A stretch of DNA of 9,579 bases, taken from IMG/VR virus record IMGVR_UViG_2541047938_000004. One strand, 5' to 3'. The notes beneath the pieces were generated by a model. That model was not told the origin of the DNA. It saw only the letters and a list, made by a program, of their open reading frames with translations, and did no database searches. This DNA comes from a virus. Lineage: Duplodnaviria; Heunggongvirae; Uroviricota; Caudoviricetes. Shown piece by piece: positions 1-9,579 of this stretch; the first letter of the stretch is position 1, and every line of letters begins with the position of its first letter. A program made the translations under genes and the position numbers.

Positions 1-1236
1 CTACGATAACCGCGCATTCAACATGGCTACCTGTTCGTCGTTCATGTCATCAATCCACATACCGTAAATTTCATACACCATCTGCGCAGTTTCATGCCCC
101 ATCTGGCTGGCTATAAACGCCGGGTTCGCTCCTGCCGTCAACAGCCAGCAGGCAAAAGTATGCCGCGTATGGTACGGATTACGGCGGCGAATACCAGCAC
201 GTTTTACTGCTGCATTCCATCTCGCACCCAAACTGCTTACCGAGTAATAAGGTTTCTGTTTTCCGTTACACACTCTGGGCATGAAAACAAAATGCAGTTT
301 TTGCTTTTCGGTTCTGCCGTACTCCCGATGATAAAAAGTGATTTCGCTTTTGCGATGATGCCCGGTCAGTTTGTATTGCTCCTTCAGTGCTTCAAGAGCA
401 GGCTGCAGTAGTGTTACCGTCCGGATCCCCGCATTTGTTTTTGGGGGACCGAACATATCCAGTATCGTCAGGTTTCTTCTGACATTCACAACTCCCTTCT
501 CGAAATCCACATCCTCCCACGCCAGAGCAGCCAGTTCCCCGTGACGAAGCCCGGAGTATACGGCAAATTTCCACAAGTTCTGGCTCTGTCCTTTTTCACT
601 TTCCATTAATGCATTGAATTCTGTTTTAGATAACGGGTCAGGCTTTATTCTGTTTCTCTGTAATTTCTTTACTCCTTCAAATGGTTTGGTTGATATAAAT
701 CCCGACTGATACGCAAAACGTAACAACGAACAGAGCAGGGCGATATAGTTATCAACTGTGCGCACGGTTCTTCCTTTTTTGTTGGATCTTGGATTATCCA
801 GGTAAAGCGTTTCTCCATGCAGCAGTTCATTCCGGTAGTTTAAGATATCGCTATAACGAATATGCGATATCGGAGTACTCTCACAAATTATTATCCTGAG
901 TGTTTTTAATTGTGATTTCGTTTTCTTCATTGTGTTTGTTGTTAACTCTGTTTCTTTAATTTTTGTCCAGATATCACAAAGCTCCCCGAACGTTTTTATG
1001 ACCCTCGTTGTCACCATTTTTGCCCCAGTGCTGGACTGGGGAAAACGTCTTAAATACTCAAACTCACCGGAATTGATTTCATGAACTATCAACGCTCTTA
1101 AATTCCCGGCTTTTTTAATGTTACTGTTAGTAACCTCCCAGCCTTTCAATGTTTCCCGACATCGTTTTCCTCGAAACATGAACCAGATGCGAATGTATTT
1201 ACCTCGAATCTCGACACCTGTTGGTAATTTAGACAT
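1..1236 (-). CDS. intR: Tyrosine-type site-specific integrase of a Rac-like lambdoid prophage (411 aa, complete; stop codon is window positions 1-3)
   Basis: ATG-initiated 411-codon ORF. The C-terminal region has the tyrosine recombinase signature (NPYHTRHTFACWLL with H-x-x-R, then a Tyr-containing VYEIYGMW segment). N-terminus MSKLPTGVEIRGKYIRIWF matches my memory of Rac IntR. Followed 1 nt upstream by an excisionase-like gene, as in lambdoid int-xis modules. Confidence 0.93.
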   Translation of the reverse strand: MSKLPTGVEIRGKYIRIWFMFRGKRCRETLKGWEVTNSNIKKAGNLRALIVHEINSGEFEYLRRFPQSSTGAKMVTTRVIKTFGELCDIWTKIKETELTTNTMKKTKSQLKTLRIIICESTPISHIRYSDILNYRNELLHGETLYLDNPRSNKKGRTVRTVDNYIALLCSLLRFAYQSGFISTKPFEGVKKLQRNRIKPDPLSKTEFNALMESEKGQSQNLWKFAVYSGLRHGELAALAWEDVDFEKGVVNVRRNLTILDMFGPPKTNAGIRTVTLLQPALEALKEQYKLTGHHRKSEITFYHREYGRTEKQKLHFVFMPRVCNGKQKPYYSVSSLGARWNAAVKRAGIRRRNPYHTRHTFACWLLTAGANPAFIASQMGHETAQMVYEIYGMWIDDMNDEQVAMLNARLS

Positions 1237-1552: not shown

Positions 1553-1741
1553 TCACGAGGACTGAAGTTTCTCGCAATTAAAATTTATCAGTTTTACTTT
1601 CTGCTCTCTGGAAACGCCTGCTTCTTTTTTACCTGAGAGCATTTTTTCGCATTCTGATTTCGTTAGTTTAGATTTTGAATATCTTGTCCAGTTAGTAGGA
1701 GTGCCACCTTCCTTTTCAATAGTGGCGGTAATTTTATACAT
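1553..1741 (-). CDS. ydaC: Small prophage protein YdaC-like (start ambiguous: 1741 with GGAGG SD, or 1753)
   Basis: ORF 1553..1813. The internal ATG at 1741 (MYKITATIEKEGG...) is preceded by GGAGGTG with 5-nt spacing; the alternative ATG at 1753 gives MEVFMYK.... Position between xis and ralR matches Rac ydaC. Function unknown. Confidence 0.65.
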   Translation of the reverse strand: MYKITATIEKEGGTPTNWTRYSKSKLTKSECEKMLSGKKEAGVSREQKVKLINFNCEKLQSS

Positions 1742-7672: not shown

Positions 7673-7746
7673 TTGTGTGTAAAAAAATGAGATGGGATAA
7701 AGTGAAGCACAAACCCGGAGGGGGACGCTACCGGATTTATGCTGGT

Positions 7747-8500: not shown

Positions 8501-8919
8501 AAATCAAGCATGAGCACATCGAGTCAGTGTTGTTAGCCCTGGCAGCCGAAAAAGGGCAGGCATGGGTAGCCAATGCCATTACTGAAGAATATCTGCGCCA
8601 GGGGGGCGGCGAATTGCCCCTGGTACCAGGCAAGGACTGGAATAATCAGCAGAATATCTATCACCGTTGGTTGAAAGGTGAAACGAAAACGCAAAGAGAA
8701 AAAATTCAGAAGCTGATCCCAGCAATTCTGGCAATCCTTCCGCGCGAGCTGCGTCACCGACTCTGCATCTTCGATACCCTGGAACGCCGTGCATTACTGG
8801 CGGCGCAGGAAGCGTTAAGTACGGCAATTGATGCGCATGATGATGCAGTCCAAGCCGTTTACCGGAAAGCGCATTTCAGCGGCGGCGGGTCTTCCGACGA
8901 TTCTGTCATTGTTCATTAA
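8497..8919 (+). CDS. ydaT: YdaT (140 aa), reported as a CII-like regulator that is toxic when derepressed
   Basis: ATG-initiated 140-codon ORF, MKIKHEHIESVLLALAAEKGQAWVANAITEEYLRQGGGELPLVPGKDWNNQQ..., coupled to ydaS by ATGA overlap. The 140-aa length equals K-12 YdaT. Confidence 0.85.
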   Translation: MKIKHEHIESVLLALAAEKGQAWVANAITEEYLRQGGGELPLVPGKDWNNQQNIYHRWLKGETKTQREKIQKLIPAILAILPRELRHRLCIFDTLERRALLAAQEALSTAIDAHDDAVQAVYRKAHFSGGGSSDDSVIVH

Positions 8920-8982
8920 GCAAAAGTTTCCATGCTGTTTGTGCTTATTCTAAGCCACCGGGCAGCATCATACGGGGCAATT

Positions 8983-9579
8983 ATGGCCGCATTACCATAC
9001 ATGCAACTGTACATAGCTGATTACCTGGCTGACACCATGCATTTGTCAGCAGAGGAGCATGGTGCGTATTTGTTGCTGATGTTCAATTACTGGCAAACAG
9101 GAAAGCCAATACCTAAAAACAGGCTGGCAAAAATTGCCCGTCTGACTAACGAGCGATGGGCTGATGTTGAACCATCCTTGCAGGAGTTTTTTTGCGATAA
9201 CGGCGAGGAATGGGTGCATCTTCGGATTGAGGAAGATCTGGCATCAGTCAGGGAAAAATTAACCAAAAAATCAGCCGCAGGAAAAGCATCTGTTCAGGCC
9301 AGAAGAAGCAGAAAGGAAGCAGATGTTCAAACAAAACAAGAGAGAAATTTAACAGGTGTTCAAACAGATGTTGAAGTGGTGTTTGAACATGATGTCAACA
9401 CAAAGGCAACTAATAAAGATACAGATAAAGATCTAAAAACAGATCCCCCCCTAAATCCCCCTCGGGGGAATCGAGGTGTCAAAAAGTTTGACCCTCTGGA
9501 TATTGCTTTGTCCGCTTTGTGCCAGGAGCAGACGTTACTAACATCTATCTGCATCAATCTGTGGGGAGCAGAACCGTGA
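8983..9579 (+). CDS. ydaU: YdaU-family putative replication initiator (lambda O-like position), 198 aa from ATG 8983; stop TGA is the last codon of the window
   Basis: ORF 8932..9579. ATG 8983 (MAALPYMQLYIADYLADTMHLSAEEHGAYLLLMFNYWQTGKPIPKNRLAKIARL...) is preceded by a GGGG run; ATG 8932 has no SD. The coding sequence contains an iteron-like repeat array and AT-rich block (separate feature), as lambda O contains ori. Functional assignment is by position and architecture; the name is from my recollection of Rac. Confidence 0.7.
   Translation: MAALPYMQLYIADYLADTMHLSAEEHGAYLLLMFNYWQTGKPIPKNRLAKIARLTNERWADVEPSLQEFFCDNGEEWVHLRIEEDLASVREKLTKKSAAGKASVQARRSRKEADVQTKQERNLTGVQTDVEVVFEHDVNTKATNKDTDKDLKTDPPLNPPRGNRGVKKFDPLDIALSALCQEQTLLTSICINLWGAEP
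9283..9476 (+). other. Candidate replication origin embedded in ydaU: direct repeats at 33-bp spacing, one inverted copy, AT-rich block, GC-rich dyad
   Basis: TGTTCA at 9291, 9324 and 9357 (exactly 33 bp apart). The 10-mer TGTTCAAACA occurs at 9324-9333 and 9357-9366, with its inverted copy TGTTTGAACA at 9380-9389. The block 9401-9444 is about 73 percent A+T. It is followed by the GC-rich dyad CCCCC-TC-GGGGG (9457-9468) within 9445-9476. Confidence 0.45.

Follow-up and report, generated by a model that had tools for sequence, protein, structure and literature searches.

In phage lambda, the replication origin lies within the gene of its own initiator, O, where 18-bp ATCCCTCAAAACGAGGGA iterons, set about 20–24 bp apart and each possessing internal dyad symmetry, occupy positions +349 to +433 and are followed by an A-rich, strand-asymmetric block at +435 to +480. 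The iterons encode the linker joining a DNA-binding N-terminal domain (Phage_rep_O, PF04492) to a C-terminal domain that recruits the loader, P; the genes run in the order cro, cII, initiator, loader, and the N-terminal domain and its iterons together form an exchangeable cassette. Phages of Gram-positive bacteria (SPP1 G38P/oriL, lactococcal and streptococcal phages) also have origins inside their replisome-organizer genes, comprising repeats, both direct and inverted, to which the protein encoded by the same gene binds, with an AT-rich stretch adjoining and a helicase-loader gene downstream; in all of this they resemble the locus as proposed here, although initiator family (DnaD-like/Phage_rep_org_N), repeat sequences and hosts differ. 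In iteron plasmids with winged-helix Rep proteins (including RepA_N proteins such as 4pta), by contrast, iterons are usually 17–22 bp long and lie outside rep or at its edge, and no sequence relationship was found. A further relative is the DnaT–DnaC pair of Escherichia coli: many proteins of the YdaU family carry a C-terminal PF17948 domain and are followed by a DnaC-like gene, mirroring the dnaT–dnaC operon, although DnaT has no origin-specific N-terminal domain and serves PriA-dependent restart rather than a defined origin.

Genetic knowledge of the Rac origin, oriJ, dates from the late 1970s. Diaz and Pritchard reportedly described a Rac fragment replicating autonomously, and oriJ plasmids of Rac are said to have been studied by Potrykus et al. 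in 2000. More recent work reports that Rac carries an origin, oriJ (PMC3945230), and describes the element as replication-defective (PMC11014345; bioRxiv 10.64898/2026.09.06.749655). The literature searched, which did not extend to the original oriJ mapping papers, yielded no sequence-level description or coordinates of oriJ or of the repeats in ydaU.

Within the 9,579-nt stretch of DNA analysed here (the window), positions 9357–9444, inside ydaU, are likely, on sequence grounds, to be the cis-acting replication origin of the Rac-type module, and read in this way they are the best candidate for oriJ. The origin very probably sits within the gene of its own predicted initiator, YdaU, and is very probably built like that of lambda, but with another initiator domain and other candidate binding sites. 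The original prediction had likened the layout inside ydaU to that of lambda ori, and comparison with mapped lambdoid origins bore this out: position and order match the iterons and A-rich block of lambda, the Rac copies lying at +309 to +420 and the A-rich block at +419 to +462 from the ATG at 8983. As in lambda, the candidate origin is within the initiator gene and equally distant from its start, each site has internal dyad symmetry, an A-rich strand-asymmetric block follows the repeats, and the repeats encode a linker between a presumed DNA-binding N-terminal and a presumed loader-recruiting C-terminal domain; N-terminal domain and repeats are again an exchangeable cassette. The placing of ydaU in the position equivalent to that of O also proved correct, the order cro-like gene, cII-like gene, ydaU, DnaC-like loader being found in K-12 and in distant phages. 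K-12 has repeats in the inter-domain linker, an A+T-rich block downstream and the loader gene next, although that loader is the DnaC-like YdaV rather than P. The N-terminal domain is DUF1376 (PF07120) rather than Phage_rep_O, the sites are of about 10 bp, GTT-N1-2-AAC, at 11–12 bp, and Rac has a CCCCCTAAATCCCCC boundary that is missing from lambda. A lambda-type origin in the strict sense was rejected, since YdaU lacks PF04492 and the Rac sites are 10-bp TGTT-NN-AACA sequences, not iterons of the ~18–19-bp ATCCCTCAAAACGAGGGA type.

The ydaU gene and its phased repeat sites

The features of the locus are as follows (window coordinates).

8932–9579, + strand: ydaU ORF as present in the window, 215 aa
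8995–9243, + strand: coding region of the DUF1376 domain (PF07120), a predicted winged helix (domain match)
9274–9306, + strand: codons of the family-invariant basic motif AAGKASVQARR (alignments)
9291–9300, + strand: weak upstream copy, TGTTCAGGCC, a 6-mer match only, overlapping the AAGKAS-VQ codons
9324–9333, + strand: upstream exact copy, TGTTCAAACA, variable among Rac-like alleles
9357–9366, + strand: core site 1, exact copy, TGTTCAAACA (GTT-CA-AAC)
9369–9378, + strand: core site 2, degenerate, TGTTGAAGTG, 12 bp after site 1
9380–9389, − strand: core site 3, inverted exact copy, TGTTTGAACA, in another reading frame than the direct copies
9393–9413, + strand: core sites 4 and 5, TGTCAACACA (9393) and GGCAACTAA (9405), CAAC ends at 9399 and 9410, 11 bp apart
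9401–9444, + strand: A-rich strand-asymmetric block, 72.7% A+T, with a degenerate GATACA hexamer tract (GATACAGATAAAGAT) and GATC at 9430 and 9442
9445–9468, + strand: C7 run, TAAAT and CCCCC-TC-GGGGG; start of the C-terminal module (peptide PPLNPPRG)
9508–9579, + strand: foreign segment in place of the DnaT-like C-terminal domain of YdaU (sequence match)

The start conserved in the family, MAALPY, corresponds to the ATG at 8983. K-12 YdaU has 285 aa, and the window copy is truncated: positions 8900–9514 are 99.5% identical to K-12 MG1655-type records, with divergence after 9514. Rac-derived sequence stops at about 9506–9514 and the ORF continues into foreign DNA; other lambdoid prophages have a stretch 100% identical to 9508–9579, lying unannotated downstream of a DUF977 gene. 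Since the initiator encoded here has lost its C-terminal domain and ydaV falls outside the window, an origin in this copy could fire only with YdaU and YdaV supplied in trans.

DUF1376, the sole Pfam match of YdaU, is presumed to be the origin-binding domain of the initiator; the search for PF04492, negative for YdaU, matched the positive control, Gifsy-2 O. Behind this domain the AAGKASVQARR motif falls within a long predicted helix (model residues 80–123, numbered from the ATG at 8983), in which A99, G100, K101 and S103 are invariant in both alignments and R107 is invariant in one and nearly so in the other. Its serine codons alternate between TCN and AGY among homologues, indicating that the motif is conserved at the protein level, and it may help in DNA recognition. 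Residues 124–166 (nt 9352–9480) are disordered in the AF2 model, a segment spanning the core array, the A-rich block and the GC dyad. The DNA-binding domain of DnaT (PF17948) was found at the C-terminus of many YdaU homologues and in an alternative C-terminal module, and was below threshold in the domain search of K-12 YdaU itself.

TGTTCA occurs at 9291, 9324 and 9357 in steps of 33 bp, every coordinate of the original prediction being correct, and the exact 10-mer TGTTCAAACA, itself a TGTT-NN-AACA dyad, is present on the + strand at 9324 and 9357, on the − strand at 9380–9389 and nowhere else in the window. The 33-bp spacing is real, but it is not the organising period. The degenerate copies at 9369, 9393 and 9405, absent from the original prediction, bring the spacings of AAC half-sites to 12, 11, 12, 11 and 11 bp (a further weak copy lies at 9347), so that the core is an array phased at 11–12 bp over 9357–9413, of which 33 bp is three units. 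Conservation is lowest in the two upstream copies. A 10-mer present three or more times within 70 nt, whichever the strand, was obtained in 1/300 dinucleotide-preserving shuffles, and no other repeat cluster of this kind was found in the window or in K-12 ydaS–ydaW. Self-similarity of 9283–9412 peaked at lags of 33 (z 4.2), 11 (z 4.0) and 23 (z 3.4), values reached by 0/352 segments of the same length elsewhere in the window. Loose matches to the 10-mer (≤2 mismatches) were not enriched (16 versus 15.3 expected).

Among 43 Rac-like alleles the cores of the sites were kept while spacers changed, often non-synonymously. The core of site 1 was invariant across 38 Rac-like alleles; site 2 kept TGTTG with a variable 3′ part (GAAGTG, GGCGTG, GGTGTT); site 3 was nearly invariant, distant enterobacterial genes having CGTTTGAACA at the same place; and CAAC..AACTAATAAAGAT, covering sites 4 and 5, was conserved in Rac-like alleles and distant enterobacterial genes alike. 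Upstream, the 9291 copy had no counterpart in the distant homologues compared and is probably incidental or accessory. The 9324 copy varied among Rac-like alleles (ATATTCAAAAAA, ATGCTCAAACA, TGTTAAAACA, TGTTCAAAAA), was missing in Citrobacter braakii (L094), and is an accessory site at best. In Shigella flexneri, IS2 insertions were observed within the array.

Scans of the repeat region for promoter-like and terminator-like sequences, Rfam families and DnaA boxes were all negative. No DnaA box (TTATNCACA) was found in ydaU, and the sole TTWTNCACA match in the window, at 7676–7684, is at chance level; a DnaA-dependent origin of oriC type, with a DnaA-box cluster beside the unwinding element, was thus rejected.

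Conservation of the array among DUF1376 genes

Conservation at the DNA level was assessed in non-Rac DUF1376 loci, 69 after dereplication. The exact motif GTT(C/G)AAC occurred 55 times at nt +300 to +399 of the gene, in 36/69 loci, a density of 7.97 per kb compared with about 0.17 per kb in the flanks (~45-fold). Consecutive family sites were spaced by 11 bp (51 times), 22–23 bp (14 times) or 33 bp (3 times), and all three reading frames were used (30/20/19). The array is retained from Enterobacteria as far as Achromobacter, Azotobacter and Planctomycete MAGs, in which identity of the flanking protein is 30–45%, and among homologues an A-rich tract of hexamer repeats follows in every case. The unit (GATACA)n, fixed in its nucleotide sequence, extends from Enterobacteria to Planctomycete and Bacillales MAGs, with (AACCAG)n in its place in Achromobacter. 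Codons of the (GATACA)n tract were GAT in 63/63 and ACA in 63/63 instances, compared with 36% and 15% elsewhere in the same ORFs, a fixed usage that holds even in hosts of 62–67% GC.

These data bear on the suggestion, raised by the original prediction itself, that the periodicity reflects only a repeated peptide motif, the repeats being a by-product of a repeated or low-complexity linker peptide (VQT..VQT, DTDKD) with no function as DNA. It is true that 33 is a multiple of three, that the three direct copies share one frame and encode VQ(A/T), that the 9291 copy shares nucleotides with the codons of a conserved protein motif and that (GATACA)n in homologues is always (DT)n. Sites spaced at 11 bp and using all three frames, however, are not a peptide repeat, and within Rac three copies (9369, 9393 and the inverted one at 9380) lie in other frames; spacer amino acids change freely while the cores stay, the codons of the hexamer tract are fixed far beyond their background usage, (AACCAG)n encodes NQ or PE depending on the gene, and the segment is predicted to be disordered. 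The frame analysis largely refutes the peptide reading, which we regard as very unlikely. For the (GATACA)n tract a peptide role is conceivable, since it is always read as Asp-Thr.

The Rac sites differ from those of the family in having a centre of 2 nt (GTT-CA-AAC) instead of 1 nt, and for this reason a position weight matrix trained on exact family sites scores the Rac copies poorly; the window was scored by the lag analysis in place of the matrix. Window and family share the whole of the proposed cassette, namely DUF1376, the AAGKAS..R helix, at least three GTT-N1-2-AAC sites at 11–12 bp and an A-rich tandem-repeat tract. One subclass, with a winged helix 79% identical, has CTACGGTAG-type repeats, and a T5orf172-like insert replaces AAGKASVQARR; since so similar a helix is accompanied by different repeats, the winged helix alone may not set site specificity. 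Matches to DUF1376 genes on plasmids numbered 12, all but one (55 kb) on plasmids of >200 kb and apparently inside prophages. With 11/12 plasmids >200 kb, they were uninformative as to natural DUF1376 replicons.

The A-rich block, the GC dyad and module exchange

The A+T content of 9401–9444, put at about 73 percent in the original prediction, is 72.7%, and the block is presumed to be the DNA unwinding region. It holds the least stable 40-mer in ydaU (start 9407, dG −45.1 versus a window mean of −54.7, sd 4.2); the corresponding region in K-12 has 33% GC and an AT skew of up to +0.6. The GC-rich dyad CCCCC-TC-GGGGG (CCCCCTCGGGGG) is indeed present at 9457–9468, but as a family-wide element of the origin it was rejected: of two genes with the C-terminal module of YdaU, the O gene of phage vB_EcoS-673R7 lacks the GGGGG arm and Gifsy-2 O has it shortened to GGG, and GC dyads at the equivalent position were not enriched across the family (18/69 loci versus 15.1 expected). 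Palindromes of the CCCCC-TC-GGGGG type recur in some Achromobacter/Bordetella-type genes. The sequence CCCCCTAAATCCCCC is common to ydaU, the 673R7 O gene and locus L068, with the variant form CCCCCTTTAATCCCCC in Gifsy-2 O.

Genes sharing only one half of ydaU indicate which parts travel together. The O-type genes of Gifsy-1/Gifsy-2 and the gene of vB_EcoS-673R7 share the YdaU C-terminal module (47% and 87% identity, respectively, over aa 156–268). Gifsy-2 and 673R7 also share with Rac the A-rich block, the CCCCC-TAAAT-CCCCC boundary (CCCCC-TTTAAT-CCCCC in Gifsy-2) and a DnaC-like loader, and each has its own repeat set at the same position in the gene. Those repeats differ from the Rac sites, comprising seven lambda-type ATCCCCGAAAACGGGGAT iterons in 22-bp phase behind a PF04492 N-terminal domain in Gifsy-2 O, and GTTAC/GTAAC repeats behind an N-terminal domain without a Pfam match in 673R7. 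Conversely, some E. coli alleles are 95% identical to Rac through N-terminal domain, repeats and A-rich block up to about 9438 and then have another C-terminal module, followed by a lambda-P-like loader gene; the type of C-terminal domain co-varies with the type of loader (DnaC-like versus P-like). The repeats are thus co-inherited with the N-terminal domain, and the hexamer tract travels with the same N-terminal cassette. A reading of the tract by the DnaT-like C-terminal domain was accordingly dismissed, the tract going with the N-terminal module and being absent from O-type genes that have the same C-terminal module. All observed mosaic joints lay at 9438–9446, and an insertion variant breaks exactly at the joint after the A-rich block. 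L060, considered as a third C-terminal module, proved to be the Rac type with an insertion of roughly 110 aa.

The concentration of every joint at 9438–9446, together with the presence of AACTAATAAAGAT..GATCTAAAAG in otherwise different genes, might suggest that the conserved stretch is a recombination linker for lambdoid module exchange, kept by hitch-hiking. Such a linker has no need of an 11-bp phased palindromic array upstream and would not persist from Enterobacteria to Planctomycete MAGs at the low flanking identities seen, and the same joints would result from a boundary of origin and linker placed between two protein domains; we consider this exceedingly unlikely. It is also unlikely, if less so, that the phased array is a protein-binding site without a role in initiation, such as an autoregulatory site or roadblock of the ydaU–ydaV operon, a centromere-like partition site or a packaging signal. 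The gene that holds the array stands between a cII-like gene and a helicase loader, an A-rich tract always comes after the array, the array takes the place of the bona fide lambda-type iterons of O genes with the same C-terminal module, and no partition ATPase or terminase gene adjoins. Initiator iterons commonly double as autoregulatory sites, and autoregulation would add to an origin role rather than replace it.

oriJ and a proposed mechanism of initiation

It might be argued that oriJ lies elsewhere in Rac, in ydaV or an intergenic AT-rich region, and that the ydaU repeats are a decayed relic. Primers said to frame ‘oriJ’ (De Paepe et al. 2014) amplify K-12 ydaV (L001 4154–4308), about 0.7 kb downstream of the repeats, several intergenic 40-mers of the window have lower duplex stability than the block in ydaU, and the two upstream copies, 9291 and 9324, show decay from allele to allele. 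The ydaV amplicon, however, has no repeats and ordinary composition and encodes the Walker A region; being featureless coding DNA, it was rejected as a mapped origin and is taken to be a Rac-internal amplicon. No further repeat cluster exists in the window or in ydaS–ydaW, and hundreds of E. coli genomes retain the core sites 9357–9413, as does vB_EcoS-683R6, a functional phage whose YdaU is 99.3% identical. An origin elsewhere is in our view quite unlikely, and we return to 9357–9444 as the probable site.

The comparison shows the layout of the sequence, its conservation as DNA, its phase and independence of frame, its co-inheritance with the N-terminal domain, its equivalence in position to lambda-type iterons, and the folds. 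That YdaU binds the sites, that the DNA unwinds, that the loader is recruited and that the locus is oriJ we infer. Dimers of YdaU would bind the GTT-N(1-2)-AAC sites through the N-terminal winged helix, possibly aided by the AAGKAS..R helix, with the copies at 9291 and 9324 perhaps acting as accessory sites. Because the sites are 11–12 bp apart, bound YdaU would sit along a single helical face, wrapping or straining the DNA, and the adjoining A-rich strand-asymmetric block at 9401–9444 would melt. The DnaT-like C-terminal domain of YdaU would then recruit the DnaC-like loader YdaV bearing host DnaB. Repeats of this kind would be tolerated within a gene since the peptide they specify is a disordered linker joining the two domains of the protein, which is also the case in lambda O.

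A broader interpretation, which we put forward tentatively and hold to be fairly unlikely, is that DUF1376/YdaU represents a widespread, undescribed class of phage and prophage origin, in which the initiator coats one helical face by way of 11-bp phased GTT-S-AAC sites and the hexamer tract acts sequence-specifically rather than as mere AT-rich sequence. One possibility, by analogy with the DnaA-trio of bacterial oriC, is that the tract serves in single-strand recognition or as a helicase-loading track.

The analysis provides a base-pair-level candidate for oriJ that is directly testable, and bears on current work on Rac excision, in which Rac is assumed to be non-replicating. Copies of Rac predicted to be origin-dead include those of Shigella flexneri with IS2 in the array and that of the window, with its C-terminally truncated initiator. 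For annotation of prophage origins, phased GTT-S-AAC sites and an A-rich hexamer tract behind a DUF1376 domain offer a motif. DUF1376, common in prophages of Proteobacteria, thereby gains a proposed function, as the origin-recognition module of a lambda-style initiator, and placement in a disordered linker would allow a DNA signal to be maintained within coding sequence across very distant hosts.

Repeats within the ydaU gene of the window

The window carries the immunity and early region of the E. coli Rac prophage (intR, recET, racR, ydaS, ydaT, ydaU, in that order), and its segment 8900–9514 is 99.5% identical to K-12 MG1655-type records and matched in 888/5426 complete E. coli genomes. Across 9200–9505 a single base separates it from K-12, the T of CCCCC-TC-GGGGG, which is C in K-12. 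The Rac match ends at about 9506–9514, so that the ydaU frame stops at 9579 after 215 codons, compared with 285 in K-12, and the DnaT-like C-domain is consequently missing. The final 72 bases (9508–9579) show 100% identity to unannotated DNA 3′ of a DUF977 gene in other E. coli lambdoid prophages; ydaU of the window thus reads as a hybrid Rac/foreign ORF, the junction of which was not found in any complete E. coli genome of the collection. The next gene, ydaV, falls outside the window. The RalA antitoxin sRNA (1557–1735 (+), Rfam RF02694, 225 bits) adjoins the ralR region.

The original prediction proposed a candidate lambdoid origin inside ydaU. Its TGTTCA repeats, inverted copy, A+T-rich block and GC dyad were all recovered at the positions claimed, but four further copies (9347, 9369, 9393 and 9405) had been overlooked.

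Repeat-region features of ydaU
8932–9579 (+), ydaU ORF, conserved start MAALPY at ATG 8983; DUF1376 domain (PF07120) at aa 22–104 of the ORF
9291, TGTTCA
9324, TGTTCA, opening an exact 10-mer TGTTCAAACA
9347, weak copy
9357, TGTTCA, opening an exact 10-mer
9369, degenerate copy TGTTGAAGTG
9380–9389, exact 10-mer, inverted (reverse complement)
9393, degenerate copy TGTCAACACA
9401–9444, A-rich block, 72.7% A+T
9405, degenerate copy GGCAACTAA
9418–9432, Rac hexamer tract, degenerate GATACAGATAAAGAT
9430–9433 and 9442–9445, GATC (Dam) sites in the A-rich block
9457–9468, GC dyad CCCCCTCGGGGG

The 10-mer, itself dyad-symmetric (TGTT-NN-AACA), a symmetry that the prediction had passed over, has only these three exact copies in the window. 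At least three copies of one 10-mer inside 70 nt arose in 1/300 dinucleotide-preserving shuffles, and neither the remainder of the window nor K-12 ydaS–ydaW holds a comparable cluster. Successive AAC half-sites between 9353 and 9410 lie 12, 11, 12, 11 and 11 bp apart, and self-similarity of 9283–9412 peaks at lags of 33 (z 4.2), 11 (z 4.0) and 23 (z 3.4), values reached by 0/352 equal-length segments elsewhere in the window. Duplex stability is lowest within ydaU, though not within the window, at the A-rich block. Scans of the repeat region returned no promoter-like or terminator-like site, Rfam family or DnaA box, so alternative functions gain no support.

The core array and its conservation

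In 43 distinct Rac-like sequences hardly any change was seen in the core of the 9357 copy or the 9380 copy, in CAAC at 9396 and at 9407, or in AACTAATAAAGATACAGAT, while spacers vary, often changing the amino acid (GAAGTG / GGCGTG / GGTGTT; GATGTC / GGCGCA / GACGCA). The 9324 copy is far more variable (ATATTCAAAAAA, ATGCTCAAACA, TGTTAAAACA) and lacks a counterpart in Citrobacter braakii, and the 9291 copy is a 6-mer that overlaps the sequence coding for AAGKAS-VQ, an invariant protein motif. This pattern places the array core at 9357–9413. The 33-bp spacing is real, but 33 bp is three 11-bp units rather than the organising unit, and the 9291 and 9324 copies are accessory at best. In L085, L092 (E. 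coli ECMA0423) and L093 (Shigella flexneri SFBU1023) an IS2 end (TGGATTTGCCCCTATATTTCC...) lies within the array at gene nt about +415, joined just 3′ of the inverted copy (...GAACATGATGC, then TGGATTTGCCC); it parts sites 1–3 from both site 4 and the A-rich block, which presumably leaves these copies without a working origin.

Distant relatives have the same layout. Pseudomonas phages PfDIW6, AH02 and PfAn1 and Bordetella phage IFTN2 encode proteins 32–57% identical to YdaU over the matched stretches, within a cro / cII / initiator / loader order in 3/4. Directly 3′ of the DUF1376 domain all four carry 4–6 copies of ..GTTCAAC.. / ..GTTGAAC.. / ..CAACGA spaced by 11, 12 or 22 bp, followed by an A-rich short tandem repeat, (ATACAG)5, (GAAGA)n or (AACCAG)5, after which IFTN2 has CCCCCTAACCCCCGCAAGCGGGGG. 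Scanning a single genome from each species gave 80 DUF1376 loci (Enterobacteriaceae, Pseudomonas, Achromobacter, Azotobacter and Acinetobacter, with Methylococcaceae, Planctomycete and Bacillales MAGs), most of which combine an array with an A-rich tract.

For 69 dereplicated loci, Rac excluded, exact GTT(C/G)AAC occurred 55 times at gene nt +300..399, spread over 36/69 loci, a density of 7.97 per kb, compared with about 0.17 per kb over 5 kb of flanking sequence. Consecutive sites were 11 bp (51 cases), 12 bp (2), 22–23 bp (14) or 33 bp (3) apart; outside the gene the distribution of spacings was flat. The periodicity could in principle reflect only a repeated peptide motif under protein-level selection. 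An 11-bp period is incompatible with a peptide repeat, however, and the family hits used all three reading frames (30/20/19), so this explanation was not borne out. A smaller peak at +100..199 traces to two conserved peptides, (M/L)FNYW and DVE; two origin-site lookalikes in the DUF1376 coding region (GCTGATGTTCAA at 9075–9086 and GCTGATGTTGAA at 9160–9171, 85 bp apart) are therefore probably protein-driven.

Sites differ between subclasses. The centre is 2 nt in Rac (GTT-CA-AAC) and one in the family consensus (CGTT-S-AACG), and a matrix trained on that consensus, with its 1-nt centre, scores the Rac copies low; both lengths occur together in enterobacterial arrays. In loci L115–L117, L119, L121 and L161 (gene nt +380..+700), whose winged helix shares 79% identity with that of YdaU, the AAGKAS helix gives way to a T5orf172-like insert that falls below the Pfam cut-off, and the repeats are not GTT-S-AAC but CTACGGTAG / CTACTGTAG / GCTACGCGTAG; the GATACA-type tract behind them is exact, (GATACA)n, in L121 and degenerate in the others. 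In the distant DUF1376 genes L157, L162, L163 and L167 (27–30% identity; gene nt +330..+480), NGKKGGRPPK lies 3′ of the domain and AAGKAS is absent; AACCCAG / CTGGGTT repeats, followed by CCCAAT-type tracts, look like a third site type.

The tract 3′ of the array is (GATACA)n in 17 loci, from hosts of 41 to 67% G+C ranging from Gammaproteobacteria to the Planctomycete and Bacillales MAGs. It encodes Asp-Thr in every case, with GAT in 63/63 and ACA in 63/63 codons, whereas elsewhere in the same ORFs, hosts of 62–67% G+C included, GAT supplies 36% of Asp and ACA 15% of Thr. The reading of (AACCAG)n depends on the gene, being either Asn-Gln or Pro-Glu. On this evidence it is the nucleotide unit that appears constrained, beyond peptide or A+T content alone.

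Module exchange and lambda-type origins

STEC alleles are ~95% identical to Rac through N-domain, repeats and A-rich block up to about 9438, past which they carry a different C-terminal module (PF17948, the DnaT DNA-binding domain) and then a lambda-P-like loader; an insertion variant breaks there too. The YdaU C-module (from about 9446) is common to replication proteins with other N-domains. Gifsy-2 O, a lambda-O homologue (PF04492), has seven ATCCCCGAAAACGGGGAT iterons in 22-bp phase and, 3′ of them, an A-rich block ending AAAGATCTAA, then CCCCCTTTAATCCCCC and ..AAGTTTGATCC, colinear with Rac 9430–9500; in vB_EcoS-673R7 the repeats are GTTAC/GTAAC, again followed by an A-rich block and CCCCCTAAATCCCCC. 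One C-module thus stands behind three different N-domain-plus-repeat cassettes, and one cassette before two C-modules, each paired with a different loader, as would be expected of an origin-recognition cassette joined to a loader-recruiting domain. Comparison with lambda-type iterons places the Rac repeats (+309..+420) and A-rich block (+419..+462) like those of Gifsy-2 O and of lambda O (annotated iterons +349..+433, A-rich block +435..+480).

Two further features of this region were noted. In L060 and L063–L067 a Rac-type ydaU has a roughly 110-aa insertion (phrog_1347) right after the A-rich block (gene nt about +465 onward), which opens with its own GC-rich palindrome CCCTTCCGGAAGGG. AGATCTAA is retained in 9/14 enterobacterial DUF1376 loci and also closes the A-rich block of Gifsy-2 O; methylation or SeqA control through the GATC sites is possible.

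The GC dyad is real in the window and recurs in certain lineages (L128, L129, Achromobacter/Bordetella types) but was not supported as a feature of the family. In two genes with the YdaU C-module its GGGGG arm is either absent (673R7 O) or shortened to GGG (Gifsy-2 O), and all-G/C dyads at this position (18/69 loci, 15.1 expected from control windows) show no family enrichment. Conservation is seen in the C-run boundary CCCCCTAAATCCCCC, coding for the PLNPP start of the C-module.

PHROG families label YdaU a ‘primosomal protein’, and for the C-terminal part the matches are to ‘replication initiation O-like’ families; many homologues end in PF17948, and ydaV, next in K-12, encodes a DnaC-like helicase loader. 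An AlphaFold2 model (41 homologues as input) predicts with confidence an N-domain (residues 4–80) and a C-domain (167–235), with a long helix (80–123) and a disordered stretch (124–166, pLDDT below 50) between them; with residues numbered from ATG 8983, the predicted disorder corresponds to nt 9352–9480, spanning core array, A-rich block and dyad. K-12 ydaU–ydaV (L001 3033–4643) and homologues pair a DnaT-like-ended protein with a DnaC-like loader, as does the host dnaT–dnaC operon, which suggests a common origin for the C-domain and DnaT.

Relation to oriJ

Plasmids based on oriJ were reportedly described by Potrykus et al. in 2000. The literature searched, which did not extend to the original mapping papers, gave neither oriJ coordinates nor mention of the ydaU repeats, and we therefore equate the ydaU region with oriJ only by inference. 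PMC3945230 states that Rac carries an origin of that name. The ‘oriJ’ primers in the supplementary table of De Paepe et al. 2014 (PMC3945230) amplify 155 bp of K-12 ydaV (L001 4154–4308) at the Walker A codons, about 0.7 kb 3′ of the repeats; nothing origin-like was seen in this amplicon. Rac is treated as replication-defective in two recent papers, PMC11014345 and bioRxiv 10.64898/2026.09.06.749655.

The origin principle itself is textbook; no description was found, in the literature searched, of a DUF1376-linked array of GTT-S-AAC sites at 11-bp phase that comes with a hexamer tract fixed at nucleotide level and is shared between phyla. We hold with high confidence that the ydaU repeat region is a functional element at the DNA level. 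It most probably serves the Rac-type module as its replication origin, working like ori-lambda, although it lies outside the lambda O/ori-lambda family, from which it differs in initiator domain, sites and phase.
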